A stretch of DNA of 64,000 nucleotides from positions 21,574-85,573 of the forward strand of contig QKEV01000008.1 in assembly GCA_003252295.1 (NCBI GenBank). Reading direction: 5' to 3'. The position numbers and the translations under genes were made by a program. The first letter of the stretch is position 1. Every line of letters begins with the position of its first letter. Positions 8,343 through 59,687 of this stretch are shown piece by piece. The notes beneath the pieces were generated by a model. It searched no databases and had not been told where the DNA came from. It saw nothing but the letters and a program-made list of their open reading frames with translations. This stretch comes from a bacterium (GTDB taxonomy: Bacteria; Patescibacteriota; Minisyncoccia; Phycocordibacterales; UBA12088).

Positions 8343-10645
8343 TGACCAAAAAGCTACCTTTCTATATCTTGAGTATTTGTTTACTCGCATTTATTAATAC
8401 AAGTACCATACATGCTGAAGATGAAGCGGATCTTCAAGATGCACTTGATGGTGGTAATGTAACGGTGCCTGATTCTACTCAAGATAATCAGACAAGTGAT
8501 ACAAGTGATACAAGTGATACAAGTGATACAAATGATACAAGTGATCCTACAAAAGTGTTTATTATTGATACCGGTGTCAACGCTGCTGAGTTTAAGGATA
8601 GTGAAGGGAACGTACTTCCTATTTCAGGTACGTACAATGCTACGGATGGTAGTAGTGATGTAACAGATAATGTGGGTCATGGTACTAACATGGCAAATAC
8701 TTACGGTCAGGAGATTGGAGACGAGATACAGAGTGGGAAGGTGCAGGTGTACGTGGTGAAGGTGAGTGACTCACCTCAGATAAATGAGACTAATATACAG
8801 AACGCCTTGACATACGTGAAAGAAAACTCTGCCAGTCCTGGGGCTGATATTGTGAGTATGAGTTTTGGTTCTCCAGGTATAAACAATACGGCTGAAACAC
8901 AAGCGCTACTGAACCAGCTCAATGATGCTGGTGTGGTAGTGGTTGCTGCAGTAGGTAATGACGGTAGTATTATTACTGACACAGACAGTATAGCTGGTGC
9001 CCCAGGAGTCCTTGGTGTTGGAGCGACTACTGAAGGTGATGATAATGCTATCACTAGCTATTCAAGCGGTAGAATTACTGCGAGTGCAGATATATATGCA
9101 AGCGAGGGTCCTACTGAGTTAGGGCAAGGTACGTCAGCAGCAACAGCAAGAGCGGGAGCTATTATTGCTGGGGAGATAGCAGCAGGTAACATAACTGATG
9201 AGGATGGTAATGGTCTCATTGACTCAAATGAGGTTGAAAAGTACTTAGCGAGTGGTCAAATGGAACCAAGGTCTGATTTTAATGTGACTGACCAGGCAAC
9301 GTACCAAACGATAGCAGCAAATGGTATGACATATGATGCTGATAAAAACGTATTTATAACAGAAGCTGGAGGTGAGGTCTCACCTCTGCTTTTGGGTATA
9401 AGTGATGACCCTACGGCAATAGAGGAAAACATGGAGTACTACGGTGATCAGGTAAAATCAATGTCTGCCGAGGATCTTGAGTTTGCTAAAAAGATAGGTA
9501 TGGCTCCTCTTTTGTATAACGAGGCTGTAAAACCTGCTCTTGATGACACTGGGTTTGCACCAAGCTTCTCTTCTACACAGGAACTAAAGGGTTACAAAGA
9601 TACGAATTTAGCAGCTGCTGGGTATGACTATGATCCTATCGCTGATACTTGGACAAATTATGATACAGGTGATGTTATTGCTGATAATGATCTTGATGCA
9701 ATGAACTATAGTGAGTTTGTCGAGACGATGCGAGAATCTAAACTCGAAAATCTTGGACTTGAAGAAACAACACAAGGTTGGGTGGATGGAGATGGAGTAG
9801 TTGTTATTCCAGCAAGTGAGAGTTTGGCAACGATGAGTGAAGGGGATTTCAAAACTTACGTACTTGCTGCGGGTGGCGATATCGGAGATAGTACGTTCTA
9901 TGACCCTTTTCCTTACACTCTTGATAATAAGGAAATCAACTTGGCATATGCTGGTTTTAAGTACAACACGTTCACTGATTCCTGGGAACCAGATACCTCA
10001 ACTGACAAGGGTATAGCGCTTGATGCTGCAGGTATCGATTCCTACTCTACTGAAGAAATAGTTGCTATGAGCGATGTTGAATTCACTGCACTCATGAGTG
10101 AAGCAGAACTTGCTGCAGATGGTTACACACCAAGTCCTGATATTGCAGGTGTTTGGGTGAGTGCTGATGACCCAGATGACATGATGACCATAAGTCCTAC
10201 AACAGGTTACGCGGTGCCGTACACAGCAGGGTCAACAGGTACCACAGGCGGTTCAACAGGTAGTACAGGAACAACAGGAAGCAGTAAAGGTTTAGTAAAT
10301 TGTGGTGGTACAAGCAATGGGGGATTTAAGGAGTGTGGCTTGTGTGACCTTACCACAACAGCAGCGAATGTATTAAACTTTTTAGTAGTAGCAACAGCTA
10401 TCATAGCAACACTCCTCTTCATTAATGCAGGCGTACTCTACCTCTTTTCAGCAGGAAACCCTGGCAGTATCGCAAAGGCGCATAAGATCTTTGTTAATAC
10501 ACTTGTTGGTTTTATTATTGTCCTTGCTGCATGGCTTATTATCAACCTTCTTATGGCATGGTTCTTTACTGGAGATCTATCCAAGGTTTTGCCTGGTGAT
10601 TGGAATACTGCACTCTGTCCTGGTAGTGGAGTTGTTGCACCATAG
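8343..10645 (+). CDS. Secreted subtilisin-like serine protease (S8) with D/T/S repeat linker and C-terminal two-helix membrane anchor
   Basis: Signal peptide MTKKLPFYILSICLLAFINTSTIHA. Catalytic triad context FIIDTGV (Asp), GHGTNMA (His), GTSAATARAGA (Ser). The C-terminus has the Cys motif CGGTSNGGFKECGLCDL followed by two hydrophobic helices. The in-frame ATG at 8210 belongs to an upstream extension that is probably not translated. Confidence 0.8.
8497..8550 (+). repeat. Tandem 9-bp repeat (gatacaagt)x~5, encoding (DTS)n
   Basis: agtgatacaagtgatacaagtgatacaagtgatacaaatgatacaagtgat. It is in-frame inside the subtilase gene. Confidence 0.8.
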
Positions 10646-10670
10646 AGAGAAGAACTTGTTAATAGAAAAA

Positions 10671-10702
10671 CACCCACTGTATGTATACAGCGGGTGTTTT
10701 GT
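10671..10702. terminator. Bidirectional intrinsic terminator between convergent genes
   Basis: CACCCACTGTAT-g-ATACAGCGGGTG + TTTT. The complementary strand shows an A-run/T-run. Confidence 0.55.
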
Positions 10703-10704
10703 CT

Positions 10705-11016
10705 CTACTCTTCTACAGAATCTGTTTTTGTTTCCTCCGTTATCGTTTCTGGTTTTGGTTCTGGAGTTGGTTCGTTTGGTGCTTCTTCCTGAACCATAGC
10801 AGTTTGCTCCTCGTGCTGAAACTCTCGAGAGTCCCGCTTGAGCATGGCATTTATTGGGCAGTAGCGTAAAAACGCTGTACCAGCGAGTATTGCAGCTATT
10901 GCAGCAAGTATGATGCGTACCACATAATTTTCAACAATAAAGAGTGCAAAGAGTACAATGAGTGCTCCAGCGAGAGAACGCATGTGTGACTCTTGGGTTC
11001 CAATGTTTTTATTCAT
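10705..11016 (-). CDS. Small membrane protein, DUF2892/YgaP-like (tentative), with proline/glutamate-rich tail
   Basis: Two TM helices, then a ...RYCPINAMLK motif resembling DUF2892. The C-terminus is EPTPEPKPE-rich. Confidence 0.45.
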   Translation of the reverse strand: MNKNIGTQESHMRSLAGALIVLFALFIVENYVVRIILAAIAAILAGTAFLRYCPINAMLKRDSREFQHEEQTAMVQEEAPNEPTPEPKPETITEETKTDSVEE

Positions 11017-13055: not shown

Positions 13056-14846
13056 TTATAAATCGAAGAAGTCCACAATCGTATCGTACAGTTCATCGAG
13101 ATTGTCACGCTTGCGGAGTATGTGGTCCTCGTCAGAGAAGGAGAGTGTCTCAAGGTTTACCCCTTGTTTTTCTGCAAACTCTACGTACTTGGTAGACTGC
13201 CATACCGGTACCGTCGAGTCATTCTCTCCCCACACCACGAGCACCTTGTCTTTTTTGGTGAGTTCATCCATGCCGGTAAACACACTTGCCTGCATGTAGG
13301 CATCTAGGTTGTCCGTATCAGGAACTCCATTAAACACGCTGGTGAATGGAGAGCTTGGTATAGCCTGAAGGAGTCCATACCAGTCAGACACACCGTTTAT
13401 TGAGATCACACCATCAAGTTTTTTTGGATAATCGACGATGCCACGTAGTGCCATGTATCCTCCATAGCTGTTACCAATGAGGTACACGTTATCTATATCC
13501 AAGTCTTTCTTGATGTCATCTATTGCGTCTTCAACATCTTCCATCTCCACATCACCGACATGCATAGTGAGTGCTTTTCTGAAGTCTGCACCGTAACCAG
13601 TAGAGCCGGTGTAGTCTATTTTGTAGACGTAGTTGCCATCTGCCACGAGCCGTTCAAGTAAGTCATCATAGACAGCGTAAGATAGGTATGAATGGTACTC
13701 TTTTGCTACCTGTCGCTGTGGGCCTCCGTGCATCCAAATGAAGAGGTTGCCGCTACCGCCTTTTGTAGGTGAGAGAAGTACTCCATTACTGTCTCCGTAC
13801 TCCACCACTTCTCGTTCTACCTTGCTCGAAAGTTTTGATGCTCGTACTGGTGTGAGGGTGGTTTCTTTTCCTGCATCATCTATAAGCATGAGATTTGTAT
13901 TTTTTCCTTCAGTTTTGAGAAAGGTGAGGAAAGTGCCATCACTGGTATCAACCCTCTTGATGTAGTCACCGTATGACACATCCTCCTCCACTTTTTGTGT
14001 CTTACTGTCTTTGTAGCTGAAGAGGTCCCATTCAAGTGGTCCATCTACATTTGCCATAAAGTAGAGTACATTGTTTGCAAAGAGGTAATCCTCTAATTCG
14101 GTTTCAGGTTTGGTGAGCTGTTTGAGTGAAGAAGGGTTAGTTTTTCCAAGATCACTTGTTTTCATGGTGTAGAGTGTTTTGTAGCCATCTACATCGTCAA
14201 GGAATGCTATTTGCTCTTCATTATCTGAAAATTCAAGATATGATTGCATAGATGAAGGTGGTGTGAGCTTTTTGCCATCAGAAAAACGCCATACCTCATG
14301 TTCAACTGTTGAGTAGTTGTAGCCAGCAACATAGTTACCGTCAGGTGAAATAGTAAGAAAAGCGAGAGTTTTTTGCAGAGTGAGTGTATTCTGCTTCTTT
14401 GTTTTTATATCGTAACGGGTGTAAGTGAGACCATCTTTAAAGATAACTGCAGTACTGTTCTTAGAAAATGATACCGTTGCACCTTTCTTGGTGTAGGGGA
14501 TGAGTGCGAGTTTTTTAGGTGTCTTTGTTGAGGTGTCGTAGAGGAAATAGTACACAGCAGTACCTGCAATAAATGGCTTGATACCAAGAGTTCCATCACT
14601 GTTTGTGACATATGCATTTGAACCTAAGAGTGTTGGGAGAAGGTTTGGTTCTTCTGAACCAACCTTATCGCAATCATTGTCAGTGGTGCAGGTGTAGTAT
14701 GTTGCACCTGCGGGTCCTTTGTACTGGAGTACGAGTGTATCTTTATACTGGCTTAGTAGTGAGCCATAATGTATTTCTCCAGCATGCGCTGTACTTGCTA
14801 CAAACAAGAGTGGCAGTGAGAGAATAAGGGATTTATGTAGTTTCAT
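13056..14846 (-). CDS. Secreted S9-family (prolyl oligopeptidase/acylaminoacyl-peptidase-like) serine peptidase with N-terminal beta-propeller
   Basis: Signal peptide MKLHKSLILSLPLLFVASTAHA. The C-terminal alpha/beta-hydrolase region has the nucleophile GNSYGGYMA. The N-terminal half is repetitive and beta-rich. Confidence 0.7.
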   Translation of the reverse strand: MKLHKSLILSLPLLFVASTAHAGEIHYGSLLSQYKDTLVLQYKGPAGATYYTCTTDNDCDKVGSEEPNLLPTLLGSNAYVTNSDGTLGIKPFIAGTAVYYFLYDTSTKTPKKLALIPYTKKGATVSFSKNSTAVIFKDGLTYTRYDIKTKKQNTLTLQKTLAFLTISPDGNYVAGYNYSTVEHEVWRFSDGKKLTPPSSMQSYLEFSDNEEQIAFLDDVDGYKTLYTMKTSDLGKTNPSSLKQLTKPETELEDYLFANNVLYFMANVDGPLEWDLFSYKDSKTQKVEEDVSYGDYIKRVDTSDGTFLTFLKTEGKNTNLMLIDDAGKETTLTPVRASKLSSKVEREVVEYGDSNGVLLSPTKGGSGNLFIWMHGGPQRQVAKEYHSYLSYAVYDDLLERLVADGNYVYKIDYTGSTGYGADFRKALTMHVGDVEMEDVEDAIDDIKKDLDIDNVYLIGNSYGGYMALRGIVDYPKKLDGVISINGVSDWYGLLQAIPSSPFTSVFNGVPDTDNLDAYMQASVFTGMDELTKKDKVLVVWGENDSTVPVWQSTKYVEFAEKQGVNLETLSFSDEDHILRKRDNLDELYDTIVDFFDL

Positions 14847-19907: not shown

Positions 19908-20360
19908 ATGGAACCAGAAACAACACAAGAAAACCAACAAGCACCAGAGCAGAACACGCAGCAAGAGGCATTTGTACCTCTCGATGAAGAGAAAGCAACA
20001 GCATCTACACCAACAGGTGAGTACAAAGATGAAGGATGGTCATGGGGAGCCATGATGTTCAACATGGCATTTGCCATTGCTGTTCGAGAGTACATGTACC
20101 TCTTCGTTTATCTACTCTTCTTGGTGCCGATTGTGAACTTTATTGCAATGCCGGCAGTCATGATATTCTTTGGGCTCAAGGGTAGGGAAATAGCACAGAA
20201 GAGTAAGGTGTTTGCAAACAAAGATCAGTACCTTGGCTTTATGAAAGCGATGGATCATGCAGGATTGATATCCTTTTATATATCACTTGCTTTCTTTGTG
20301 CTTGGAATTTTGGCAATGTTCGGTCTCGGCTCAATTGCCTTTATGGGCATGCACTACTAA
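19908..20360 (+). CDS. Hypothetical membrane protein (acidic N-terminus, 3-4 TM)
   Basis: 150-aa ORF followed by a hairpin terminator (GAACACCA...TGGTGTTC + TTTTTA around 20385-20420). Confidence 0.45.
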   Translation: MEPETTQENQQAPEQNTQQEAFVPLDEEKATASTPTGEYKDEGWSWGAMMFNMAFAIAVREYMYLFVYLLFLVPIVNFIAMPAVMIFFGLKGREIAQKSKVFANKDQYLGFMKAMDHAGLISFYISLAFFVLGILAMFGLGSIAFMGMHY

Positions 20361-20806
20361 TACCTCATCTAGATCAAACTATTACTAGAACACCACCAAA
20401 CAGAAGGATGGTGTTCTTTTTAATAGTCGCTGTGTTTTCGGTTGTATTCAGTGTACCGTTTCATATTTATTTGTGACCAAATTGTCTTTTTGTGTCTTTT
20501 AGAAAAAGACATGTGAATTGACAAAAAAAGTTTTATGCAACCTTATATACAATCCACAGAGTTTTCCACGAAAAAATACCTACTAATACACATGCTTTCC
20601 ACAGCTAATGCTATACTCATGTTAACCCCTGGTCTTGCCACGTATTGCAAGTAAACATATAAAGGACATCCTTAGTGTTCGTTTGTGGTGCAACTTATTA
20701 CAAGTAATTACTAGGGATAGGAAGACACGCTGGCTTCCGTAGGGAACTCGGAGAAATGAGTTACCTAAACTGTATGGCGTCACGCACCATACGGTCTTTT
20801 TTGCAT

Positions 20807-21967
20807 ATGTATTCACCATCACGCAGTATTGCGCTGCAATCGTGGTATATCCGCGTAGCAGTAGTAGTAACTGGAGCTCTTATTTTTTGGGCTTCTGGTC
20901 TTCCTGGCTCCCTGCTAGTTGCACGAGCCGATCAGGTAACAACGCTCTCTGATGTGCTTTCAACAAGTAAACCAGACACGGGAGCAAACCATACCATTAC
21001 ATTTGGCACACCTACGGGAGTTCCTGCAGATGGTTCAACTATAGTGGTAACTATGCCTACCGGATTTACCATGGGTTCACTTGGCGAGGATGATATTGAT
21101 ATTACAGATGATGGTGTCGACCTAACGACAGATACTGTCTGTGGAGCAGTGAATGCTGCAGTAACTGTTTCAGGACAGGATATAACCATTGAAATATGTA
21201 GTGGCGGCGGCGGTGCTATTGCAGCTGCGAGTACGATTACTATCGAGATAGGTACCAATGCTACAGCATCAGGTACTGGCGCAAACCAAGTAACTAACAA
21301 TGCTACAGTGGGTGAGTATGAGGTGTTGATAGGTGGAACTATGGCTGATGAGGGTTACACAAAAATTGCAATAATTGACAGTGTTACCATTACTGGTGAG
21401 GTTCAGAACTTCTTTGAGTTTACTATTGGTGGTGTTGATACGGGATTAACGGTAAATGCAGACGCAACACTTACCACTGGAACAACAACAGCCACATCAG
21501 TACCGTTTGGTATTGTTTCTGCAGGAAGTGAGTATGTACTTGCACAAGATCTTACGGTAAACACAAACTCAGCAAATGGTTTTATTGTTTCAGTGTTTGC
21601 AGATGGAGATCTTGAATCTTCAACAGGAGCAACGATTAACTCTTTCAGTGATGGAACGTATGAGGCAGTACCAACAACATGGGCACAACCTTCAGCAATA
21701 CCGGGTAGTGCGGATACATATGGACACTGGGGTGTTACAACAGAAGATACAACACTTTCTGATGATGATTCGTTTGGTGATGCATTGTATGTAGGTGATT
21801 TCGTAAGTAGTGCACGGGAAATAATGTATGCAACATCAAGTGCTGATGCTATTACCCCGGATATTGGTTCAACACGAGTTGGTTTCAAAATGGAGGTAAG
21901 TAGTATGCAGGAGGCGGCAACTGACTACACGACACGGCTTGTATATATAGCTACTCCGGTATTCTAA
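20807..21967 (+). CDS. Secreted Thr/Gly/Ala-rich beta-rich surface protein (hypothetical)
   Basis: Signal-like MYSPSRSIALQSWYIRVAVVVTGALIFWASGLPGSLLVARA, then a low-charge T/G/A/V-rich sequence. The ORF-track start at 20756 is probably an upstream extension. Confidence 0.5.
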   Translation: MYSPSRSIALQSWYIRVAVVVTGALIFWASGLPGSLLVARADQVTTLSDVLSTSKPDTGANHTITFGTPTGVPADGSTIVVTMPTGFTMGSLGEDDIDITDDGVDLTTDTVCGAVNAAVTVSGQDITIEICSGGGGAIAAASTITIEIGTNATASGTGANQVTNNATVGEYEVLIGGTMADEGYTKIAIIDSVTITGEVQNFFEFTIGGVDTGLTVNADATLTTGTTTATSVPFGIVSAGSEYVLAQDLTVNTNSANGFIVSVFADGDLESSTGATINSFSDGTYEAVPTTWAQPSAIPGSADTYGHWGVTTEDTTLSDDDSFGDALYVGDFVSSAREIMYATSSADAITPDIGSTRVGFKMEVSSMQEAATDYTTRLVYIATPVF

Positions 21968-24745: not shown

Positions 24746-26695
24746 ATGAATGGACTTTCTATACGAAGTCTGATGAAGGATCATAACGTACCTGAAGATG
24801 AGCGCGTAACGTACTTTGGTGTCACAGACAGTAGAAACAGGATGCAACCGTTTGGCATAAAACGGGAGGATAGATCTCGTCATACCTACGTTATCGGAAA
24901 GACGGGAATGGGAAAATCTACGCTCCTCGAAAACATGGCAGCCCAAGATATTTTAAACGGCGAGGGTCTGTGTTTTATTGATCCGCATGGTGGTTCTGTT
25001 GAGATGATGCTCAACTACATTCCTGAAGATCGTGTGAAGGATGTGTTGTACTTTGCACCATTTGATATGGAGTATCCTATTTCCTTTAATGTGCTAGAGG
25101 ATGTTGATGCCGACAAGCGCCATTTGGTGGTAGCTGGACTCATGAGTACCTTCGAGAAGATATGGGTAGATGCTTGGAGTTCACGTATGGCATACATTTT
25201 GCAGAATACACTTGCAGCACTTTTGGAGTTCCCAGGAGCAACCTTACTTTCGGTAAACAGGATGTACATTGATAAAGAGTACCGAAAAAATGTTATAGCA
25301 AACATTACTGACTCATCAGTACGTTCGTTTTGGGTGGATGAGTACAGCAAGTACACAGATAGGTATGCACAAGAGGCAACACCTGCTATTCAGAACAAGA
25401 TTGGTCAGTTCTCTTCAAATGCACTCGTGCGAAACGTAATAGGGCAGCCGCACAGTTCCTTTGATATCCGTAAACTCATGGATGAACGAAAAATCTTTTT
25501 GGTAAATCTTTCAAAAGGGCGCATTGGTGAGGGTAACGCAAACCTGCTCGGTAACATGCTCATTACCAAGATCTACCTCGCTGCTATGAGCAGAGCTGAT
25601 GCTGCGCCGAGAGAGATGAAGGTACTCCCGCCGTTCTATCTTTTTGTTGACGAGTTTCAAAACTTTGCAAATCGAAGTTTTGCTGACATTCTCTCAGAGG
25701 CACGTAAGTACAAGCTTGCACTTACCATAGCACACCAGTACGTGGAGCAAATGGACGAGGAGGTGCGTGCTGCCGTGTTTGGAAACGTTGGAACAATGAT
25801 GACGTTTCGTGTAGGAGCGTACGATGCCGAGGTACTTGAAAAGGAATTTGCTCCAGTCTTCACAGCTGATGACTTGGTGAACCTTGGAGCTCGTCAGATA
25901 TACCTCAAGCTCATGATAGATGGTATTTCTTCAGCACCGTTCAGTGCCCGAACCTTGCCACCTGTTGAGGAACCTGAGGTGAGTCATAGGGACAGAGCCA
26001 TGGCATACTCACGGTCACTCTATGCTCAGCCACGTGGAGAAGTAGAAGCCCGTATCTCTGAATGGGTAAACATGAAGTATGAGGATCCTGAGAAGGACGC
26101 TAAAGATGCAGCACGTGCACAAAGAAGAGCAGAACGTGATAGGGATGAGAGAGGAGGTGGTAATAATGGCTTTGGTAACAATGGTGGACGTACGCCAAGA
26201 CGAAACGGTGAACAAAAGAAAAACGCAGAGAATAGTGACGAGTATAAAAAAGACCTACGTAATCTCCTCAAGAAAATGACACATGATACGAAGGGAGAGG
26301 TAAAAGGTAGTACTCCTCAGAAAGTAGTATCACAAAAGGTAGTGAACGAAGACAAGAAGGGTATATCTTCGCAAGAAAAAAGACCATTATCGAAACCTGC
26401 AACAACCTTTGTTCCCAAAAAAGATGATGGTAAGGGGATAACCGATGAGGGAAAGTCAGAGTTGCGAAACCTGTTGCAATCACTCACCAAGAAAACTCCT
26501 CAAAAGGAAGAGAGACAAGGTGAGAGTGCTGTAGGAGAAAAGGTGTCAAAAAAAGAATCTACTAAAGAGCAGGAATCAAAACAAGCGGAAGAGAAAAAGG
26601 AAGCAAGTGTTGCAAAGCACCGTATTGCTCCAATAGAGATACCAAAAGAAAAACTAGATGAGATGCTTCATGTAGATAAACCTAATCTTGAGTAG
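24746..26695 (+). CDS. P-loop ATPase of the TraG/VirD4/HerA (AAA_10/DUF87-like) superfamily with a long disordered K/E/R-rich tail
   Basis: Walker A HTYVIGKTGMGKSTLLENM. Walker B follows ~250 aa later (LFVDEFQNF). Then KYKLALTIAHQ (sensor/arginine region) and a low-complexity C-terminus (GGGNNGFGNNGG, KKE repeats). Confidence 0.5.
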   Translation: MNGLSIRSLMKDHNVPEDERVTYFGVTDSRNRMQPFGIKREDRSRHTYVIGKTGMGKSTLLENMAAQDILNGEGLCFIDPHGGSVEMMLNYIPEDRVKDVLYFAPFDMEYPISFNVLEDVDADKRHLVVAGLMSTFEKIWVDAWSSRMAYILQNTLAALLEFPGATLLSVNRMYIDKEYRKNVIANITDSSVRSFWVDEYSKYTDRYAQEATPAIQNKIGQFSSNALVRNVIGQPHSSFDIRKLMDERKIFLVNLSKGRIGEGNANLLGNMLITKIYLAAMSRADAAPREMKVLPPFYLFVDEFQNFANRSFADILSEARKYKLALTIAHQYVEQMDEEVRAAVFGNVGTMMTFRVGAYDAEVLEKEFAPVFTADDLVNLGARQIYLKLMIDGISSAPFSARTLPPVEEPEVSHRDRAMAYSRSLYAQPRGEVEARISEWVNMKYEDPEKDAKDAARAQRRAERDRDERGGGNNGFGNNGGRTPRRNGEQKKNAENSDEYKKDLRNLLKKMTHDTKGEVKGSTPQKVVSQKVVNEDKKGISSQEKRPLSKPATTFVPKKDDGKGITDEGKSELRNLLQSLTKKTPQKEERQGESAVGEKVSKKESTKEQESKQAEEKKEASVAKHRIAPIEIPKEKLDEMLHVDKPNLE

Positions 26696-28139
26696 AATGT
26701 TCTGGCGTAACGGTACAATCTTGCTGTTTACCTTACTTTTTACCCCTCTTGTTACAAATGCCTCAGTGTATATTTCTGAAGTTGCTTGGATGGGTGATAG
26801 TGATAATGCAAATGCAGAGTGGATAGAGCTTTACAATGATGGCGTAGAAGTTGATTTGTCAGAATGGACACTCACTGCAAGTGATGGTCAGCCGAGTATT
26901 GTGCTCACTGGTGTGCTTGGGGTAGATAGCTACGCGCTTCTCGAACGTACAAGCGATGAGACGGTTCCATTTCAGCCAGCTTTCATGGTGTACAGTGGAG
27001 CGCTCGGTAATACGGGGGAGTTACTTGAGCTACGTGATCAGAACGGAGTATTGGTGGATAGTGTTGATGGAAGTGATGAGTGGAGTATCGGAGGTAATAA
27101 CGATACGAAAGAAACATTGCAACGCTCTGGTAATCCACCGATTGGTACTTGGATAACGAGCACCCCAACGCCACAAGGTAGTGAACCTATTAGTGTTTCA
27201 AATGATGATGATGCTAATGAGGTGAGCAGTGCAGCACGGTCATTAAGTGCAGGTGGAAGGGTAATCTACGGAAAAGAAAGTGATGACGATGATGAAGTAC
27301 ATTTAGAACCAGCACTTATTTTAACTATTGGTGATGACCGTACGGTAACGAGAGGTGTACCGGTCACCTTCAGTGCAAAGACTTACACAGAACATGGGAG
27401 AGAACGGGTCATTGATACTGTTCAGTGGAGTTTTGGTGATGGGGCAGTTGCTGAGGGTAGAGAGGTTACTCACGAGTACAACTATACGGGTGATTACGTG
27501 GTTGCTGCTAGAGCAGTGCGTGGTGGCTTCATGGAAGAGATAACTGATTCAGATTCAGTGGTTATTCATGTAGTAGAACCGACCGTTAGCATAGTGCAGG
27601 CAAGTGGTGACTTTGTAGAGGTAAAGAATAACGGAAGGGAACGGTATGACCTTTCTGGTCATATTCTCACAACAGAGACTGCACACTTCGTGGTGCCGGA
27701 GAATACCTACATACTGCCGAATGCATCGGTGCGGTTTTGTAGAGAGTATACTGGGGTACATGGTAGTGCTGTTACCTTGCGATACCCTGGTGGTGAGGTG
27801 TTGAGTACCTATGCAACCACCGAAGAACTCGCTCCTGTGACACCAGTTGTCACGAAAGAGTACAGGGAGTTGGGTACCGTTGTGGAAGAAAAGAGTGTAC
27901 CTACCACTGAACAAGAGCTAGATGAAGTAGTATACCTACCCAGTGAAATAGCTGCAGTAGCACATGCTTACGATGGGGAGGTGTTCAGTTCGGGAGATGG
28001 TAGTACTGAACAGTCGCCCTGGTGGTGGATTCTTGGTCTATTTACCGCTATAGTAACTGTTATTGTCGTAACGCTCTTGGTGCGTCATGAGGAACAGGAG
28101 GTGATAGAAGGGTTTGTTATAGAAACAATTGATGGCTAA
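26688..28139 (+). CDS. Lamin-tail-domain (LTD) protein, secreted with C-terminal TM anchor
   Basis: ISEVAWMGDSDNANAEWIELYNDGVEVDLSEWTL is the LTD signature. A second LTD-like block follows (FVEVKNNGRERYDLSGHIL). The C-terminal TM is WWWILGLFTAIVTVIVVTLLV. Confidence 0.7.
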   Translation: MSRMFWRNGTILLFTLLFTPLVTNASVYISEVAWMGDSDNANAEWIELYNDGVEVDLSEWTLTASDGQPSIVLTGVLGVDSYALLERTSDETVPFQPAFMVYSGALGNTGELLELRDQNGVLVDSVDGSDEWSIGGNNDTKETLQRSGNPPIGTWITSTPTPQGSEPISVSNDDDANEVSSAARSLSAGGRVIYGKESDDDDEVHLEPALILTIGDDRTVTRGVPVTFSAKTYTEHGRERVIDTVQWSFGDGAVAEGREVTHEYNYTGDYVVAARAVRGGFMEEITDSDSVVIHVVEPTVSIVQASGDFVEVKNNGRERYDLSGHILTTETAHFVVPENTYILPNASVRFCREYTGVHGSAVTLRYPGGEVLSTYATTEELAPVTPVVTKEYRELGTVVEEKSVPTTEQELDEVVYLPSEIAAVAHAYDGEVFSSGDGSTEQSPWWWILGLFTAIVTVIVVTLLVRHEEQEVIEGFVIETIDG

Positions 28140-31387: not shown

Positions 31388-32476
31388 CTAGTGCAGGTTC
31401 TTCTGTCGTTCAACTTCTTCCGTATCACGCAATCTATCGCGTGTTTTTTTGTATCCTTCTACGATGTTTGAATCGACTGTGGTGTTGTTGAGTTGTGCTT
31501 CAAGTACCCGTGACCAAAACTGTACACGTTCCTGTGTGAGAGTGGTGAGGTTGCCTTCAGTTTTTTCAAGCTTACTTGCGTAAAACCAGATGAGTTCGAG
31601 GAGTCGGTATATACGCATGAGCCGAAGTGATTCTAGTTCCCCCTTACTTCTGTTGTTTGCTACGTACTCATGTAGGGCTCGTTCGAGAGATGGATTATGA
31701 AGCGTCATGAAGTTCATGAGCCGTGCCCAACCTTCGTACTTGTTACCAAAGCGGATAGCAGTATGGTCAAGCAGGTAGATATCTTGCTCATGTACACGGA
31801 TGTTGTGGGGAACAAAGTCCCAGTGTGTAAGAAAGTTTGAGTATAGGTCGAGTATCTCTGAACCACTCTCAAGAGCTTCTTGTGCACGACGGAGTAGTTC
31901 AGTAAGTTCTGTCTTTTCTTTGAGCAGGCCGGACGTTTCTTGTACGAATGACTTTGCGTTTTCTAGATAGCGATCACTAGTGTATAGCTCAAAAACTTTC
32001 CGTATATTTTTGATGTGCCCGTACGTTGTTGCATGCGAACCTTCCTGAGCTTCCAGTGCCTTGAGTGCAAGGAAGAACTGCTCCTCTAGACTTCGTTCGA
32101 GAAAAGTTTTTTCCTGAGGTATGAACTCAGTGATGTAAAAGGTGTAGACACCATGCTTACCAAAGAGTATCTCTTCTGGTGAGTAGAAGGTGTTGTATGC
32201 AAAACGAATTTTCCTGAGCATGTCATGTGCTGCTCGTTCTTTCTCAAGTTCCTGGGCTATGGTGCTGTTGCTTGTAATCTTTATGATTACTTGCTTACCA
32301 GTTGTCGTTTGTGCGCCATAGAGTACGAGTTTTTCTCCAGAAAGGATGTAGCGTTCACCTTGTATGTGTGGTTGCTCGCTCGCAAGCTCAAACCCTTCAT
32401 CCAAGAGGAGTGGAGTGACTTCTTGAAGGTGTTGCTGGCAGTATGCTTCCCATTTTTCTTTTTGACTATCACCCAT
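31388..32476 (-). CDS. Protein-kinase-like / aminoglycoside-phosphotransferase-fold kinase
   Basis: Catalytic-loop HWDFVPHNIRV (HxDxxxxN) and a DxG-type LLDHTAIRFG. The start was chosen at the Met 2 nt after the upstream GT stop. The longer ORF to 32587 overlaps that GT. Confidence 0.5.
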   Translation of the reverse strand: MGDSQKEKWEAYCQQHLQEVTPLLLDEGFELASEQPHIQGERYILSGEKLVLYGAQTTTGKQVIIKITSNSTIAQELEKERAAHDMLRKIRFAYNTFYSPEEILFGKHGVYTFYITEFIPQEKTFLERSLEEQFFLALKALEAQEGSHATTYGHIKNIRKVFELYTSDRYLENAKSFVQETSGLLKEKTELTELLRRAQEALESGSEILDLYSNFLTHWDFVPHNIRVHEQDIYLLDHTAIRFGNKYEGWARLMNFMTLHNPSLERALHEYVANNRSKGELESLRLMRIYRLLELIWFYASKLEKTEGNLTTLTQERVQFWSRVLEAQLNNTTVDSNIVEGYKKTRDRLRDTEEVERQKNLH

Positions 32477-33614
32477 GATGTATTTTATTAAACGTATCAT
32501 TGAGTATCTGAATATGTTTGTCCCATGAAAATGTTTTCTCGAATACTTTCTTTGCATTACCTGAAAGTTCTGCAGCAAATGATTCATCCTCTAGGATTTC
32601 CAAAAGCATTTCTGCAGTGATATTGGCATTTGCTGGTTGTGTGAGGAGTCCTGTTTTTTCATGCATTATTCCCTCACGTATTCCGGGGACATGAGGTACA
32701 ACGACAGGTACACCATTTTGAAATGCTTCGTAGAGAAGCTCTGGTGTTTCCGCGTACGCTGCAGTAGAGAGAAAAGCACTTGCTGTTTGTAAGTGGTAGA
32801 GCTTTTCTGCTCGCGACACCTCACCAAGTAGGAGAACATTCTTTTCAAGTGAGAGCTCACGTATACTGTCCTCAAGTGCAACACGTTCTTCTTTTCCTCC
32901 GCCTGCTATGACAAGTTGCGCGTCTTCATGTACTCCACACACTTTTTGCATTGCTCTTAATGCTGTTGGTATATCTTCCCATGGAAAGAGAGAAGCTTTC
33001 ATGAAAACCTTGTTGCGTTGCTTCTTTTCAGTGAAGGGGAGGGAGAGTGGTTTGCGTGGAGCAGGGTTGAGGACACTAACACGGGTGTTCTGAAGCCCAT
33101 GTGTTCGGGTGAGGTCATCACATATGAACTGTGATGGTGCGAGTACATGTCTAGCATGCCGAAGTACGTACTGTTGTGTATGCCAAACTCCCCAGACACC
33201 ACCAGGTATCTTTTGCAGTTTTCGAAATGCACCTTGATGAATAGGGGCGGTGTCGGTATGGAGAAATCGCTCCCATGCTTCGTCCTCTGTGTAGTGTACG
33301 ATAACAGGCGTTTTGGTAAAACGTCCTGCCAGTACCGCAGGTAGTCCTGCAGCAACAGCTCGTTCTGTATAGATAATGTCTGCGCTTCGCGCCAGTTGCG
33401 TGAGGGTACGTGTGTAGTGAAAGAGTCGTACAAAAAGAGGAGTGTTCTTCTTTACTGTTTTTATCTCTACTCCCGCAATGGTTTCTATATGGTTTGCGTA
33501 GGTAAGTATAGTTATCTCATGGCCTTCTTTGAGATGCAGAGCAAGTTCCTGTATATACTGAGCTGAGTCACCAGTTTCAGGTGGGAAGAGTGGTGTTGCG
33601 ATAAGTATTTTCAT
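32469..33614 (-). CDS. Glycosyltransferase family 4
   Basis: MKILIATPLFPPETGDSAQY N-terminus. GT4 C-terminal motif. Confidence 0.8.
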   Translation of the reverse strand: MKILIATPLFPPETGDSAQYIQELALHLKEGHEITILTYANHIETIAGVEIKTVKKNTPLFVRLFHYTRTLTQLARSADIIYTERAVAAGLPAVLAGRFTKTPVIVHYTEDEAWERFLHTDTAPIHQGAFRKLQKIPGGVWGVWHTQQYVLRHARHVLAPSQFICDDLTRTHGLQNTRVSVLNPAPRKPLSLPFTEKKQRNKVFMKASLFPWEDIPTALRAMQKVCGVHEDAQLVIAGGGKEERVALEDSIRELSLEKNVLLLGEVSRAEKLYHLQTASAFLSTAAYAETPELLYEAFQNGVPVVVPHVPGIREGIMHEKTGLLTQPANANITAEMLLEILEDESFAAELSGNAKKVFEKTFSWDKHIQILNDTFNKIHHG

Positions 33615-39926: not shown

Positions 39927-40536
39927 TTACAAACCAAGTTTACTGTACATTATTAAAGCGAGGCTCAAAGGAAAGAGTTTTGTGTATGAGTACTACTGTA
40001 AGGGTAAGAATACCTTGGACCTCGGATGTGGTGAGGGAGAGTTTTTACAACATGATAAGGAAAACATGAATGGGGTTGATCTCAACAAACGAGCTATAGC
40101 GAGGTTAGAGAGTGAGGGGTATAAGGTGAAGGAGGGAAGTGTTACAGACTTACCATATGAGAGTAATACCTTTGAAGTGGTCCATTGTCACAATGTTATT
40201 GAGCATGTTGATATAGCTACCGCATATACACTCCTTGAAGAAGCTAACAGGGTACTTAAAACTGGTGGGTATCTAGTACTTTCTTCTGAGGTAGTAACGA
40301 AAAAGTTTTGGGATACTTTTGGACATGTAAAACCATACCCACCTCATGCAGTGATAAAACTTCTGCGACCAGATAGTAGAGAAGGGTTTGATGGGGTAGA
40401 GGGTTTTGAACCAGTCGGTTTGTTTTATATAGGGGAGTACTTTAAGAATAAGGTGCTGTACCTACTCTCTTTTTGTCTTGGGTATCTAACACCTCTTTTG
40501 CGAAGAGAGTATTTCTTGGTTTTAAGAAAGCAGTAA
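39892..40536 (+). CDS. Class I SAM-dependent methyltransferase
   Basis: LDLGCGEGEF (motif I) ... VVHCHNVIEHV. Confidence 0.75.
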   Translation: MTFLKILNMKNSYKPSLLYIIKARLKGKSFVYEYYCKGKNTLDLGCGEGEFLQHDKENMNGVDLNKRAIARLESEGYKVKEGSVTDLPYESNTFEVVHCHNVIEHVDIATAYTLLEEANRVLKTGGYLVLSSEVVTKKFWDTFGHVKPYPPHAVIKLLRPDSREGFDGVEGFEPVGLFYIGEYFKNKVLYLLSFCLGYLTPLLRREYFLVLRKQ

Positions 40537-41490
40537 TTGAGATATATGAGGCAGATTTCATACGTGATTCCAGTTTACAATGAAGAAGATACTTTATCAG
40601 AATTGTATAAGGAACTTTCTAAGGTGCTTGAAAAGATTGAGTGTATTTTTGAATTGATTTTTATAAATGATGGTAGTACAGATAGTTCATTAAAAATATT
40701 AAAAGAGCTTCAAAAAGGTGACCCAAGAATAGTTATAGTAGAATTTTCAAGGAATTTTGGGCACCAGATAGCAATTACCGCTGGAATTGACTATGCGCAG
40801 GGGGATGCAGTTATTGTGATGGATGGAGATTTGCAAGATCCTCCTACTGTAAGTTTGAGATTTATTGAAGAGTGGGAAAAAGGCGCTGAGGTGGTATATG
40901 GACAAAGAAGAACCAGAAAGGACACTTGGTTTAAAGAAAAAACAGCCAATTTGTTTTATAAGGTTTTAAACTTACTTTCTGATGTAGAAATACCTCAAAA
41001 TACTGGGGATTTCAGATTGATGGACAGAAAGGTGGTTGAAGTTATAAAACAAATAAGAGAACATAATCGTTTTATGCGTGGTCTCTCTAGTTATGTTGGT
41101 TTTAAACAAAAAGCTGTTTTATTTGATAGAGATGAGCGTTACGCGGGTGTGACTCACTATCCACTTAAGAAAATGATCAAGTTATCACTTGATGCGATTA
41201 TTGGTTTTTCGACAGTACCACTTAAATTGATTAGTAGACTGGGGTTTGTTGTTTCTGGGTTAAGTATTTGTGGAATTGTATATGCTTTATTTATGAAGTT
41301 TTTCTATGCATCAATTACAGTTTCTGGATGGACCTTTCTTGTAATCTCAATCTTCTTCTTAAGTGGTATACAAATGATAATACTTGGGGTAATAGGAGGA
41401 TACTTGGGAAGAATCTATGACGAGGTTCGAAATCGTCCGCTTTATATTATTTCTCGTGTGAGTCGTGGAAAAAGTATCGAAAGCATCTAA
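40537..41490 (+). CDS. GT2 polyprenyl-phosphate glycosyltransferase (GtrB/DPM1/ArnC-like) with C-terminal TM helices
   Basis: ISYVIPVYNEEDTL...INDGSTDSS...DGDLQDPP (DxD), plus two C-terminal hydrophobic helices. Confidence 0.85.
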   Translation: MRYMRQISYVIPVYNEEDTLSELYKELSKVLEKIECIFELIFINDGSTDSSLKILKELQKGDPRIVIVEFSRNFGHQIAITAGIDYAQGDAVIVMDGDLQDPPTVSLRFIEEWEKGAEVVYGQRRTRKDTWFKEKTANLFYKVLNLLSDVEIPQNTGDFRLMDRKVVEVIKQIREHNRFMRGLSSYVGFKQKAVLFDRDERYAGVTHYPLKKMIKLSLDAIIGFSTVPLKLISRLGFVVSGLSICGIVYALFMKFFYASITVSGWTFLVISIFFLSGIQMIILGVIGGYLGRIYDEVRNRPLYIISRVSRGKSIESI

Positions 41491-41491
41491 T

Positions 41492-43222
41492 ATGAAGCAC
41501 TTTATTTCGTACTCGCTAATCGGTGTTGTTGGAGCAACATTAGATTTTGTTTTGTTTTTGTTACTTTTGCGTATCGGTATATATTATCAATTTGCAAATT
41601 TTTTTAGTACTTGTGCAGGTATTTTTAATAATTTTTTTCTTAATTCTTACTTTAATTTTAAAAAAACGGATAAATTATTACTCCGACTCGCAAGCTTTTT
41701 TAGTGTTGGACTTTTAGGTCTTGCAGTAACTACTTTGTTGCTTGCATTTTTTGTGGGTGTGCTTGACCTTAATGCTGGTTTTGTTAAATTTTTTTCAATT
41801 GGAGTTATTACTGTAGTGCAGTTTACACTCAATAAACATATTACTTTTCGTAACAGAAAAAAAGTACCTCAAGGAATTCCACGAGGGCATGTTGCGATAA
41901 TAGGGGGTGGTTTTACAGGACTTGTTGCTGCATACGAACTTTCAAAGTATGAACATATACAGGTAACTTTATTTGAGGGAGGTAAAGAAGTTGGTGGGTT
42001 GGCTGCATCAACAAAAATAGAGAATGAGTCAATTGAGGCGGCTTACCATCACACATTTATGGGTGACAAGGAACTCAAAAGACTTTTAATAGAACTTGGG
42101 ATAGAAAAACAAATGCAATGGTTACCAAGTAGTGTAGGGTTATATGTTGGAGGTACAATGTATTCTTTCATGGGAGCTATCGATTTACTCCGTTTCAAAG
42201 CATTGCCTTTTTTTGATCGTTTACGTACAGGTGTTATTTCAGTTATGTTACAGATGTTGCCATGGTGGGAATGCTTAACTACTCAAAAGGCATATACCTG
42301 GGTCTATCGTTGGTATGGAAAACGAGCAAGTCAAGTTATATGGGGTCCACTATTGCAGGCAAAATTTTCTACATACTATAAAGATATATCCATGGCGTGG
42401 CTTTGGGCACGATTACATAGCCGTGGCGCTTCACGGAAAAATATTTTTTCAAAGGAGCTACTCGGTTACCCTAAAGGCGGGTACCAAGTAATCGTTGCAG
42501 TTATTGTTGAAGAGTTACAAAGGCGTGGGGTAAATATTTTGACGAATGCACAAATTACTTCTGTAGATAATACTTCAGTTGAATATGGTGGTATAAGCAC
42601 TAGTTTTGACAAGATACTTTTTACCACCTCATCAAAGGTTGCTTCTCAACTTATCAAACCATCAGTTATTAGTAAAGAATATAGATGGTACAAGGAAAAG
42701 TTGAGCTCAATCCATTACATTTCTGCCGTGACACTTTTATTTTCTTCAACTCAAAATATAAGTTCATATTATTGGAATACTGTTGCTGACGATTCAATTC
42801 CATTTCTTGTTTTTATTCAGCATACCAAACTTGTGTCTAAGGGTAACTATGGTGGTAATCATGTATATTATATTGGATCATATCTTTCTAATAATGATAA
42901 ACAATTAACAATGAAAGATGAGGAGTTGATTAATTATTGGTTTTTGGGTTTAAAGAAAATGTTTCCTCATTTTGATCGTTCGTGTGTAAGGGAGAAACAG
43001 TTATTTCGTTTTTCGAATGCACAACATGTCGTTGACACTTCTTATGTATCGCGTATACCTTCTTATCAAACTCCGCTCCCAAATGTATTTATTGCAAACT
43101 TTTCTCAAATTTTTCCTGAGGATCGTGGTATAAATTATGCTGTACGAGAAGGTAAACGTGTTTCTGAATATATGATAAATTCTTTAACTGAACAAAAAGA
43201 TACTAATGATATAAAGGGATAA
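41492..43222 (+). CDS. Fusion protein: GtrA-like membrane domain + NAD(P)/FAD-dependent oxidoreductase (amine-oxidase/UGM-like fold)
   Basis: The N-terminal ~130 aa have 4 TM helices with the GtrA-family pattern (SYSLIGVVGATLDFVLF...). Then VAIIGGGFTGLVAAYEL (GxGxxG) follows. It is a paralog of 47648..49228. Confidence 0.65.
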   Translation: MKHFISYSLIGVVGATLDFVLFLLLLRIGIYYQFANFFSTCAGIFNNFFLNSYFNFKKTDKLLLRLASFFSVGLLGLAVTTLLLAFFVGVLDLNAGFVKFFSIGVITVVQFTLNKHITFRNRKKVPQGIPRGHVAIIGGGFTGLVAAYELSKYEHIQVTLFEGGKEVGGLAASTKIENESIEAAYHHTFMGDKELKRLLIELGIEKQMQWLPSSVGLYVGGTMYSFMGAIDLLRFKALPFFDRLRTGVISVMLQMLPWWECLTTQKAYTWVYRWYGKRASQVIWGPLLQAKFSTYYKDISMAWLWARLHSRGASRKNIFSKELLGYPKGGYQVIVAVIVEELQRRGVNILTNAQITSVDNTSVEYGGISTSFDKILFTTSSKVASQLIKPSVISKEYRWYKEKLSSIHYISAVTLLFSSTQNISSYYWNTVADDSIPFLVFIQHTKLVSKGNYGGNHVYYIGSYLSNNDKQLTMKDEELINYWFLGLKKMFPHFDRSCVREKQLFRFSNAQHVVDTSYVSRIPSYQTPLPNVFIANFSQIFPEDRGINYAVREGKRVSEYMINSLTEQKDTNDIKG

Positions 43223-43226
43223 TTGT

Positions 43227-44888: not shown

Positions 44889-44924
44889 AGACACTTTTTA
44901 GTATATGATATTTATTTAATTTTT

Positions 44925-45848
44925 ATGTCAGAAAATATCGAAAAAAATTTTGTTCATATAATTGGAATTGGAGCTTACAAAGCAGCAAGCACTTGGGTGC
45001 ACACATGTTTACGTGAACACCCAGAAATATGTACAGCAACACTTAAGGAGACAAATTTTTTTGGTTCAAATTTTGAAAAAGGGTTTGATTGGTATAAAGG
45101 TCTTTTTGGTGATTATAAAGAAAAAGAACATTTACGTGCTGAATTTTCTCCTGAATATTTAGTAAACAAGGAATCTGCAGGAATGATAAAGATGTATGCA
45201 CCAGACGCAAAACTTATAGTAAGTTTACGAAATCCAATAAATAAAATCTCATCTCGTTATTATTATGATATAACAATTGGAAAGAAAAAACAGAGATTAG
45301 GTTTGAATGAGTGGTTAGAAAAAAACATCGAAAAGCCTAGTAAGTATTTTTTATCTGTTCTTGAGGAAAACAAATACTCCAGTGGTCTGAAGTTGTATTA
45401 TAGTCTTTTCCCAAAAGAACAGATATGTATTGTTTTGGTAGATGATATTAAGAAGGATCCTAAAATGGTGATCAGTAAAATATATAGTTTTCTTGAAGTT
45501 AATAGTACTTTTATTCCTGAAAGTTTGGAAAAAAAAGTAAATTTTACTACTGCAGATACTGTACATTTTCCTGCAATTAATAGATTTCTTTTTCAAATAC
45601 AGGCGAAGGTTAAGAATAGTCATTACGCTAATTTTTTTGTTCCAATGCTTAAGTTTTGTGGTTTTAATTTTCTTGCTAAGAAGCTTTTTCACATAAACAG
45701 AAATCATAAGGATGAAAATCATAGGGAATTAAAAAAGGAAAAAATAAGACAAGATTTAAGAAGAGAATTATATTCTCTTTTTGAGAATGATATCAAGGAA
45801 ACAGAAAAGCTGATTGGTAAAAAACTAGATGGTTGGAAAATTGATTAA
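44925..45848 (+). CDS. Sulfotransferase (PAPS-dependent)
   Basis: The 5'-PSB-like motif is YKAASTW (K-x-x-S/T-T-W). The 3'-PB-like motif is SLRNPINKISSRYYY (RNPxDxxxSxY). Confidence 0.65.
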   Translation: MSENIEKNFVHIIGIGAYKAASTWVHTCLREHPEICTATLKETNFFGSNFEKGFDWYKGLFGDYKEKEHLRAEFSPEYLVNKESAGMIKMYAPDAKLIVSLRNPINKISSRYYYDITIGKKKQRLGLNEWLEKNIEKPSKYFLSVLEENKYSSGLKLYYSLFPKEQICIVLVDDIKKDPKMVISKIYSFLEVNSTFIPESLEKKVNFTTADTVHFPAINRFLFQIQAKVKNSHYANFFVPMLKFCGFNFLAKKLFHINRNHKDENHRELKKEKIRQDLRRELYSLFENDIKETEKLIGKKLDGWKID

Positions 45849-45986
45849 ATTAATCAACATTTTTAAATTCCTTATTCTCTATATAAGAGCTTTAAAATAA
45901 GAGGAGATAACAGAAAGCGGTTATGGACACTTCTTGTTTTTGTTATGTGGTGGAAAAAATGGGTGAAAAAAAACGATTAAAGTGTT

Positions 45987-52446: not shown

Positions 52447-52453
52447 GAAACGA

Positions 52454-53164: not shown

Positions 53165-53173
53165 AAAATTAGA

Positions 53174-54430: not shown

Positions 54431-54548
54431 GTATGGTAATTATAACCATAAAATATACATAAAAGTTGTGTAAATAACATATGTGACAACAGTAGTTTTT
54501 ATGTATCTTTGTTTTGTTATTAAAAGTAACAAATGATACAATCTGCAA

Positions 54549-55334: not shown

Positions 55335-55353
55335 CCTATGGAGGAAGAATGTA

Positions 55354-55800: not shown

Positions 55801-55826
55801 TAAAAAAGTGCTTCTTTTATATTTCG

Positions 55827-56882: not shown

Positions 56883-56946
56883 AAAATATTTATTACATTA
56901 GTGATTGTAACATTAGTATAGTTAAAATTGTTAACAAGAAATAAAA

Positions 56947-59628: not shown

Positions 59629-59687
59629 AGTATTTGTAAAATTTCTTTATTGAAATAGTTTCTTCATCACGACGATGTTTTTCCAGA

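Follow-up and report, generated by a model that had tools for sequence, protein, structure and literature searches.

What would a complete pilin module be doing at the end of a subtilase? The question is raised by a gene of a Patescibacteriota bacterium (Minisyncoccia, Phycocordibacterales, UBA12088; assembly GCA_003252295.1), located in a stretch of 64,000 nucleotides of contig QKEV01000008.1, positions 21,574 to 85,573 of the forward strand, which is called the window in what follows. The gene codes for 767 amino acids, the window protein, in which a catalytic domain of the Peptidase S8 family is joined, through an acidic stalk and a short linker, to a C-terminal T4SS_pilin domain (PF18895; T4SS, type IV secretion system). 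The word pilin is used here as the name of the family. We give a probability of about 0.6 to the reading in which this product is a Sec-exported subtilisin-like protease, held at the outside of the cytoplasmic membrane through a whole VirB2-like pilin module. The coordinates of the features are collected in Table 1.

The C-Terminal Pilin Module

The protein ends in a cysteine motif, CGGTSNGGFKECGLC (aa 654-668), followed by two hydrophobic segments, which were located at aa 670-705 and 710-746 by hydropathy and appear as helices at aa 667-701 and 707-743 in the AlphaFold2 (AF2) model, where the module has a predicted local distance difference test (pLDDT) value of 79. An earlier note on this DNA had described a C-terminal Cys motif and two hydrophobic helices separated by a short loop, and hydropathy and AF2 agree with that description; a two-helix hairpin is predicted and a single-pass anchor is not. 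Three cysteines (C654, C665, and C668) form the head of the module and the fourth, C759, belongs to its tail (...WNTALC759PGSGVVAP). The proposal that the C-terminus is T4SS pilin-like was borne out when it was compared with the hidden Markov models of Pfam: PF18895 scored 36.5 bits with the full protein and 40.3 bits with the C-terminal 124 aa, above the gathering cut-off of 26.6, and the match spans positions 5-71 of the 71 in the profile. The note had placed this region at residues ~690-811, in the numbering of an 811-aa reading frame, which corresponds to a module at aa 650-767 in the 767-aa numbering used here. The Cys, Gly, Tyr, Ala-His, and Trp positions conserved in the family are present, and in NCBIfam only a sub-threshold match was obtained, to a pilin-like family of Mycoplasma integrative and conjugative elements. 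Sorting signals of the LPXTG, PEP-CTERM, and MYXO-CTERM types were also considered and were ruled out by the two helices, the conserved tail of 20 aa, and the significant match to the pilin family.

The limits of the module became clear by comparison with a stand-alone protein. A word-based search with the module alone gave two matches, among them P0153, a PF18895 protein of 151 aa, whose residues 34-151 were aligned by BLASTP with aa 650-767 without gaps, with 95 of 118 positions identical (81%) and the same tail (LCPGSGVVAP). The match of this C-terminal region to a PF18895 protein reached an E value of 1.2e-57, and another protein, P0006, is 60% identical to the module. Residues 1-33 of P0153 end in a predicted signal peptide (...LLVLFSAYTQVAYA/GLVNCGG). 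The homology begins at this predicted signal-peptidase site, and therefore the fusion boundary is the mature N-terminus of the free pilin. At the DNA level the two genes have 74.8% nucleotide identity over exactly 10289-10645, and their flanking genes are unrelated. Judging from these alignments, the subtilase, the stalk, and the linker stand where the free pilin has its leader.

Considering the position of this boundary, the product could also be a polyprotein. Either its own S8 domain or some other protease would cleave the chain within or close to the Gly/Ser/Thr linker, releasing a soluble protease and a free mature pilin, the N-terminal part being an oversized leader. The homology to the stand-alone pilin does start where the predicted signal peptide of the latter ends (AYA/GLVNCGG against SSK-GLVNCGG), the linker is disordered and accessible in the AF2 model, and canonical conjugative pilins (TraA, TrbC, and VirB2) are made with long leaders and then matured by proteolysis. 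Nevertheless, no Ala-x-Ala signal-peptidase motif precedes G650, the linker sequences are unconserved across the family and therefore offer no conserved cleavage motif, and the leader model fails for the relatives with enzymes located C-terminal to the hairpin. Taking all this into account, a processed polyprotein seems to us highly improbable.

The relationship of the module to the canonical pilins is less direct. Of the VirB2-like idea put forward in the earlier note, the part that stands is the match to PF18895, since PF04956 (TrbC/VirB2) gave no match at E<=1 when the window protein was scanned with Pfam. An alignment of 46 module sequences was compared, by means of hhalign, with eight VirB2/TrbC sequences, all of them annotated genes of plasmids with a type T mating-pair formation system (MPF_T) and each flanked by virB1 and virB3. 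A probability of 62.6% and an E value of 7.2e-5 were obtained over 62 columns, values that hydrophobic helices can inflate. Helix 1, the loop, and helix 2 were in register, and an N-I-x-x-F motif was common at the start of helix 1. This profile-profile comparison is suggestive of homology between the module and VirB2. The profile of the 46 sequences found no solved pilin among the PDB sequences, the only match being an insignificant one to OSTC; in Foldseek, the T-pilus subunit of Agrobacterium was placed at rank 8 with an insignificant E value of 3.8; and tblastn in 72,556 plasmids found nothing. Because the PF04956, PDB, and plasmid searches were empty and hhalign is only suggestive, what identifies PF18895 as a pilin family is its name in Pfam, the structure-based annotation in S. 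epibionticum (PMC10633639), and the statistics of gene neighbourhoods (PMC12102498).

The Protease Half of the Protein

The Peptidase S8 profile (PF00082) matches aa 70-276 with 55.9 bits, for a gathering cut-off of 21.8. By alignment with solved subtilases, D76 (IIDTG), H113 (GHGT), the oxyanion residue N206 (GND), and S265 (GTSAA) coincide with the matching motifs, and the domain has the alpha/beta fold of subtilisin. It is thus predicted to be an intact subtilase in which all the catalytic residues are present, in accordance with the standard subtilase with D, H, and S contexts that had been reported for this gene. The first 25 residues resemble a signal peptide, formed by MTKK, a hydrophobic core, and TIHA. 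A lipoprotein reading centered on Cys13 (LSIC) was discarded by eye, given that position -1 is Ile and there is no lipobox residue.

Behind the catalytic domain, the EF-hand-type putative Ca2+ loop is kept as YDxDGNGxxDxxE in the alignment of the S8-pilin relatives, and its matches to EF-hand profiles remain below the Pfam threshold (E 0.2). The stalk that follows contains an internal repeat (aa ~419-475 against ~530-590, z=7), has no Pfam match and no PDB sequence match, and in an alignment of eight sequences is shared only with P0003, P0004, and P0005. The whole ectodomain is strongly acidic, with 109 Asp+Glu against 22 Lys+Arg and an isoelectric point of ~4. The coding sequence of the linker consists of short tandem repeats (21 bp x2 and 9 bp x3; 10222-10262 and 10254-10280), and it is potentially, at the junction of protease and pilin, a second length-variable segment in the gene.

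The other such segment is a 9-bp tandem repeat, which had been placed at 8497-8550 and taken for a linker. The array exists, although its register according to Tandem Repeats Finder (TRF) is 8492-8545 and the role is a different one: from its place after the signal peptide and ahead of the catalytic Asp, it is low-complexity sequence of the N-terminal region and not an inter-domain linker. It encodes TSDTSDTSDTSDTNDTSD (aa 51-68), is nearly perfect and in frame, with a single A/G difference across the six units, and is located eight residues ahead of the first strand of the catalytic domain. Many subtilases carry a propeptide or an N-terminal segment at this position. The repeat is missing from P0004 and P0005, the relatives that cover this region in the alignment; as it is also in frame, it would be recent and lineage-specific. 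Its lengthening or shortening by slippage is plausible in principle.

Recurrence of the Fusion

The relatives were collected by an exhaustive HMMER search, word-based searches with the full protein or with the S8 domain plus the stalk having found almost nothing in these low-complexity and divergent regions. There were 6365 matches; more than 140 of the top 150 cover only aa ~648-762, with 40-59% identity and E values of 1e-15 to 1e-36. The order S8 followed by T4SS_pilin was verified with Pfam in seven of the proteins, P0003, P0004, P0005, P0007, P0046, P0106, and P0136, a count from which P0027 and P0113 were left out. Each of the seven forms its own cluster at 50% identity and is 25-35% identical to the query. 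In the alignment of eight sequences the invariant positions are GTS (G263-T264-S265), the Gly of the loop, C654, C665, and C668, together with A696-G697, Y700, A713, G723, and C759. In P0007, P0046, P0106, and P0136 the spacer is shorter and the hairpin is followed by an extra domain, which in P0136 is CHAP. In genomes, relatives of the module were found in Parcubacteria GW2011_GWA2_43_11, Kaiserbacteria, Campbellbacteria, and a metagenome-assembled genome (MAG) of an unclassified member of the Patescibacteria. Judging from these relatives, the window would come from Patescibacteria, probably of the Parcubacteria group.

These relatives bear on the suspicion that the fusion is an artefact or a coincidence, either because the separate genes of a protease and of a pilin were joined by a mis-assembly or a frameshift, or because a generic anchor with two transmembrane segments resembles a pilin by chance. 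The exact window protein is absent from a collection of 15 billion proteins, in which a 55-aa fragment with 98% identity (P0024) is present; no near-identical contig was found among genome contigs and metagenomes or with an exact DNA pattern on both sides of the 9-bp repeat; and the junction is built of short tandem repeats. Against this, seven independent and diverged proteins of different data sets share the architecture, and therefore the fusion is not an assembly artefact. Moreover, the frame stays open without a break for 2.3 kb, and a chance resemblance is opposed by the E value of 1.2e-57 to a PF18895 protein and by the Cys, Gly, and Trp that are kept family-wide. We consider this explanation effectively refuted.

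We also surveyed the module as a carrier of other domains in its 148 closest matches, 32 of which are stand-alone (signal peptide plus module) and 116 extended, the latter being scanned with Pfam. The statement of the earlier note that pilin-like domains occur on larger surface proteins of Patescibacteria is borne out by how common the extended proteins are. A short N-terminus with more than 40 aa (typically 150-300 aa) added at the C-terminal end was seen in 98 of the 148, and a long N-terminal extension in 18, of which 10 also have a C-terminal one. Among the 116 extended proteins, Pfam recognised T4SS_pilin in 106, Peptidase_S8 in 8, SLT in 8, SLT_3 in 5, CHAP in 2, and VanY, NlpC/P60, and Lysozyme_like in 1 each, besides scattered single matches. 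The partners recognised are mostly hydrolases, and most extensions have no Pfam assignment. As far as domain matches can indicate, the pattern is a modular one, with pilin modules bearing predicted extracellular hydrolases at either end.

The commonest C-terminal partner is a domain of ~130 aa with invariant H, H, G, K, D, E, and D (SHxxGxKxD...ExxHWD), present in P0010, P0011, P0012, P0016, P0019, and others. It matched no Pfam family, and a profile made from 15 sequences found nothing in the PDB. The arrangement H..H..G.K.D...E..HWD recalls LAS/M15-type peptidases, an unconfirmed impression by eye for which there was no PDB match and VanY in one protein only. A BLAST clustering of the extensions was inflated by linkers rich in Pro and Gly and is left out of account.

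When the modules were compared by BLOSUM distance, those of the S8 fusions were mostly not mutual nearest neighbours. The module of the query is nearest to the stand-alone P0153 and P0006, that of P0003 to a stand-alone pilin, and those of P0106 and P0007 to proteins made of a pilin plus a C-terminal extension. Over ~115 aligned positions, and on distances only, this points to repeated module shuffling rather than to a single ancient fusion.

Proposed Arrangement and Genomic Context

The domain make-up, the boundary of the module, and the recurrence of the fusion follow from the comparisons above; the export, topology, disulfides, proteolytic activity, and substrates of the fusion protein we infer as follows. 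The N-terminal signal peptide would direct the chain through Sec, and the catalytic domain, the Ca2+ loop, the acidic stalk of ~330 aa, and the linker would lie outside the cell. With the S8 domain placed on the outside by the signal peptide, helix 1 has to traverse the membrane inwards; the pilin module would be inserted as a helical hairpin with the loop NPGSIAKAHK inside and helix 2 running from in to out. The Lys/His/Lys loop between the helices fits the positive-inside rule. In P0136 the S8 domain precedes the hairpin and CHAP follows it, so that both ends must be extracellular. The head (C654/C665/C668) and the tail (C759) would come together outside, probably disulfide-bonded, and the disulfides could staple head to tail, a functional parallel to the head-to-tail cyclisation known from the TrbC and VirB2 pilins. 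The protease may act on extracellular proteins or on the surface of the host cell, either to scavenge or to remodel the zone of contact with a host, and such an activity would suit the epibiotic and auxotrophic lifestyle of Patescibacteria.

Several points weigh against a protease that is simply tethered. The stalk has no recognisable fold or function; the members of the architecture are known from sequences and predictions; and the positive-inside rule, hydropathy, and AF2 are the basis on which the cleavage of the signal peptide and the membrane topology are predicted. The family is named and treated as one of pilins, and Southlakia epibionticum cannot do without its pilin arrays (PMC10633639, PMC12857230); a static-anchor role may therefore understate the module. 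Finally, a gene resembling that of a T4SS coupling protein is located 14 kb downstream of the fusion gene, so the genome may have a T4SS.

The product of this downstream gene (24746-26695) is an ATPase of 649 aa that matches TrwB_AAD_bind, T4SS-DNA_transf, and TraG-D_C with E values of 1e-5 to 1e-7, and also DUF87/HerA, matches which are weak but consistent. It is followed by an overlapping gene for a protein of 483 aa with a Lamin-tail domain (LTD) and PKD (24746-28139 for the two together). No further T4SS-related gene was seen in the window: VirB4 and VirB6 were not found among the larger window open reading frames (ORFs) scanned, no other window ORF ends in a pilin-like hairpin, and the fusion gene does not lie next to virB4, virB6, virB3, or a pilin array. 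The genes of P0004, P0136, and P0106 are likewise solitary, and the fusion genes examined are found among housekeeping genes, with no T4SS genes in the 1.6 to 10 kb of DNA available per side. A pilin near virB4 was reported in 1135 of 1948 pilin-bearing assemblies (~59%; PMC12102498), which is common but not universal.

Taking into account the coupling-protein-like ATPase of the window, the protein might be an enzyme-bearing minor pilin: the T4SS would extract its module from the membrane and co-polymerise it with short VirB2-like pilins, and the subtilase would be displayed on a pilus reaching the host. The module is a complete and highly conserved mature pilin, in hhalign register with VirB2/TrbC (probability 62.6%, E 7e-5), to whose mature N-terminus the cargo is joined via a long flexible linker. 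Solved F- and T-pili have their termini on the outer side, which is where the cargo would sit. A cargo of 640 aa per subunit would, however, clash with the tight helical packing, so that only a sparse incorporation is conceivable, and the fold and sequence comparisons with solved pilins were insignificant. Essential pilin arrays are found in the T4SS loci of Patescibacteria, and the presence of a pilus has been suspected (PMC10633639, PMC12857230, PMC12102498), but it is undemonstrated for any T4SS of this group (PMC12857230), and in the DNA available no T4SS genes are close to the fusion genes examined. On balance we find a minor pilin unlikely.

A more far-reaching proposal, to which we give still less credit, is that the VirB2-like pilins of Patescibacteria are largely carriers of extracellular hydrolases (among them subtilases, lytic transglycosylases, CHAP and NlpC/P60 amidases, and other peptidases). 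The T4SS would assemble them into a filament or contact zone decorated with enzymes, by which the envelope and proteins of the host would be digested at the point of attachment, the window protein being the protease-bearing subunit. If this doubtful proposal were true, it would explain the apparent lack of a separate VirB1 in most VirB2-bearing Patescibacteria (PMC12102498).

The gene miaA is close to those of P0136, P0106, and an adjacent pair of pilin fusions in a Kaiserbacteria MAG; parB and relA are nearby as well at two of these three loci, and none of them has T4SS genes in the DNA available. These three contigs are of Parcubacteria type and contain, respectively, an S8-pilin-CHAP fusion (L004, 9395-11291), an S8-pilin fusion with an extra C-terminal domain (L007, 5226-7769), and the adjacent pair of pilin proteins (L009, 1844-4336). 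The miaA neighbourhood is possibly a conserved slot that houses varying pilin-cargo genes.

Gene Model, Features, and Neighbouring Genes

In the ORF list the gene appears as 8210..10645 (+), 811 aa with a GTG start. The first 44 codons of this frame overlap a strong terminator-like hairpin (8238-8268), which comes after the upstream gene for a tRNA-binding-domain protein, ending at 8226. Since the hairpin crosses the codons that follow the GTG and a promoter-like site precedes the first ATG of the frame, at 8342, the gene was taken as 8342-10645. The earlier note had the same gene with its start at 8343, one base off. The downstream neighbour (10705-11016, minus strand), which codes for a YgaP-like membrane protein, is convergent, and the fusion gene looks monocistronic.

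Table 1: Position of the features of the S8 subtilase-T4SS_pilin fusion gene in the window.
Feature	Position	Strand	Basis
Promoter-like site TTGATA-17-TATATT	8291..8319	+	10/12 matches; 23 nt upstream of ATG
Coding sequence, S8 subtilase-T4SS_pilin fusion, 767 aa + stop	8342..10645	+	ORF list, Pfam, hydropathy
Predicted signal peptide, aa 1-25 (MTKKLPFYILSICLLAFINTSTIHA/EDE)	8342..8416	+	hydrophobic segment aa 5-23; cleavage site by eye
9-bp tandem repeat x6 (ACAAGTGAT), encodes (TSD)n, aa 51-68	8492..8545	+	TRF: 6.0 copies, 95% matches, score 101
Peptidase S8 catalytic domain, aa 70-276	8549..9169	+	PF00082 profile, motif alignment
Catalytic residues D76; H113; oxyanion N206; S265	8567-8569; 8678-8680; 8957-8959; 9134-9136	+	
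EF-hand-type putative Ca2+ loop DEDGNGLIDSNE, aa 286-297	9197..9232	+	canonical pattern by eye
Acidic alpha/beta stalk, aa 300-629	9239..10228	+	AF2 pLDDT mostly 70-85
Gly/Ser/Thr linker, aa 630-648	10229..10285	+	short tandem repeats; AF2 pLDDT <50
Complete mature T4SS_pilin (PF18895) module, aa 650-767	10289..10642	+	Pfam, BLASTP, AF2, alignment
Module parts: helix 1 aa 667-705; loop NPGSIAKAHK 706-715, putatively cytoplasmic or lumenal; helix 2 aa 707-746			

The YgaP-like neighbour has an acidic Pro/Glu-rich tail (...PNEPTPEPKPETITEETKTD...), with a short tandem repeat within the coding region. Between the two genes, a candidate hairpin at ~10666-10700, noticed by eye and uncalled in the hairpin scan, may be a terminator shared by both. 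Other neighbours in the window are tsaD, tRNA-Val, the tRNA-binding protein, a PAS histidine kinase with its response regulator, an S9 peptidase, DUF2207, and Mur ligases. Two further proteases are encoded nearby, both on the minus strand: the S9 protein, of the prolyl-oligopeptidase family (13056-14846), and an intramembrane protease of the PrsW family (1680-2441). Four ORFs of 150-403 aa have no Pfam match (20756-21967, 31388-32587, 5226-5888, and 19908-20360), and the last of them has two long hydrophobic segments without the Cys pattern of the pilin type.

The GC content is 30-36% at 40000-47000 and 52000-60000 of the window, against ~42-45% elsewhere. The genes of these stretches code for a GtrA-amine-oxidase fusion, PMT_2-type glycosyltransferases, a protein with Wzy_C and TPR, and a protein of 893 aa with Laminin_G_3 and an LCAT-like lipase, all of them envelope and glycan functions. 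They may represent a horizontally acquired surface-polysaccharide island.

Comparison with Known Systems

The PF18895 pilins have been described in Patescibacteria, where they are widespread (PMC12102498, PMC10633639, PMC12857230). In the one genetically tractable member of the group, epibiotic growth requires the T4SS together with its VirB2-like pilin array (PMC10633639, PMC12857230). By comparison with the pilin arrays of Southlakia epibionticum ML1 and Nanosynbacter lyticus TM7x, the C-terminal 118 aa of the window protein are a full member of the family, with the C...ECxxC head, the two helices, the NPGxIxKAH loop, and the W...C tail in common. The usual form of these pilins is a protein of ~130-150 aa in a T4SS cluster or array; here the module is the tail of a solitary 767-aa enzyme encoded among housekeeping genes.

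Both domains belong to known families, and their fusion is unreported in the literature searched: pilin modules joined to proteases or to cell-wall hydrolases are undescribed in the searchable literature on the T4SS of Patescibacteria. The architecture is contained in public protein sets with precomputed Pfam matches, and it is therefore unreported rather than unseen. Its meaning is that complete pilin modules are routinely joined to extracellular hydrolases, a subtilase here and cell-wall hydrolases in the relatives, sometimes with one enzyme at each end of the hairpin. This leads to the testable idea that pilin modules serve to position degradative enzymes, either at the cell surface or along a filament that faces the host. 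It also advises caution, as not every PF18895 match would be a pilus subunit. The fusions are natural cargo-tagged pilins and could be followed by microscopy.

Canonical VirB2/TrbC pilins and the TraA of the F-pilus are likewise two-helix hydrophobic hairpins with a short, positively charged loop and both termini outside. The alignment of VirB2 sequences, however, shows no counterpart to the four conserved Cys of the module, every VirB2 locus fetched has virB1 and virB3 adjacent, unlike the fusion gene, and the window protein carries an enzymatic N-terminal extension of 640 aa.

Among proteases, the mycosins (MycP) of the type VII secretion system (T7SS/ESX) are also membrane-anchored S8 enzymes. 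Their anchor is a single helix and their genes are inside ESX loci. In the window protein the anchor is a hairpin of the pilin family, the gene is solitary, the identity to mycosins is ~30% over 22% of the protein, and ESX genes were not found among the window genes scanned. SspA-1 of Streptococcus suis 2 is likewise a subtilisin-like protease tied to the T4SS of a monoderm. According to PMC12857230, which cites Yin et al. 2016, it is secreted by the T4SS of the 89K island and reported as a released substrate. It differs from the window protein in being a released substrate and not a pilin fusion, and the comparison made here is limited to the S8 fold.

A parallel in organization is that of the VirB1-type and PrgK-type hydrolases of T4SSs, with SLT and CHAP domains and an anchor, which resemble the relatives of the pilin module with SLT, SLT_3, CHAP, VanY, and NlpC/P60. 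Both groups would be membrane-tethered extracellular hydrolases, associated with the T4SS by family name. The anchor of PrgK-like proteins is not a pilin module. The window protein bears a protease, whereas the VirB1-type and PrgK-type proteins bear cell-wall hydrolases.

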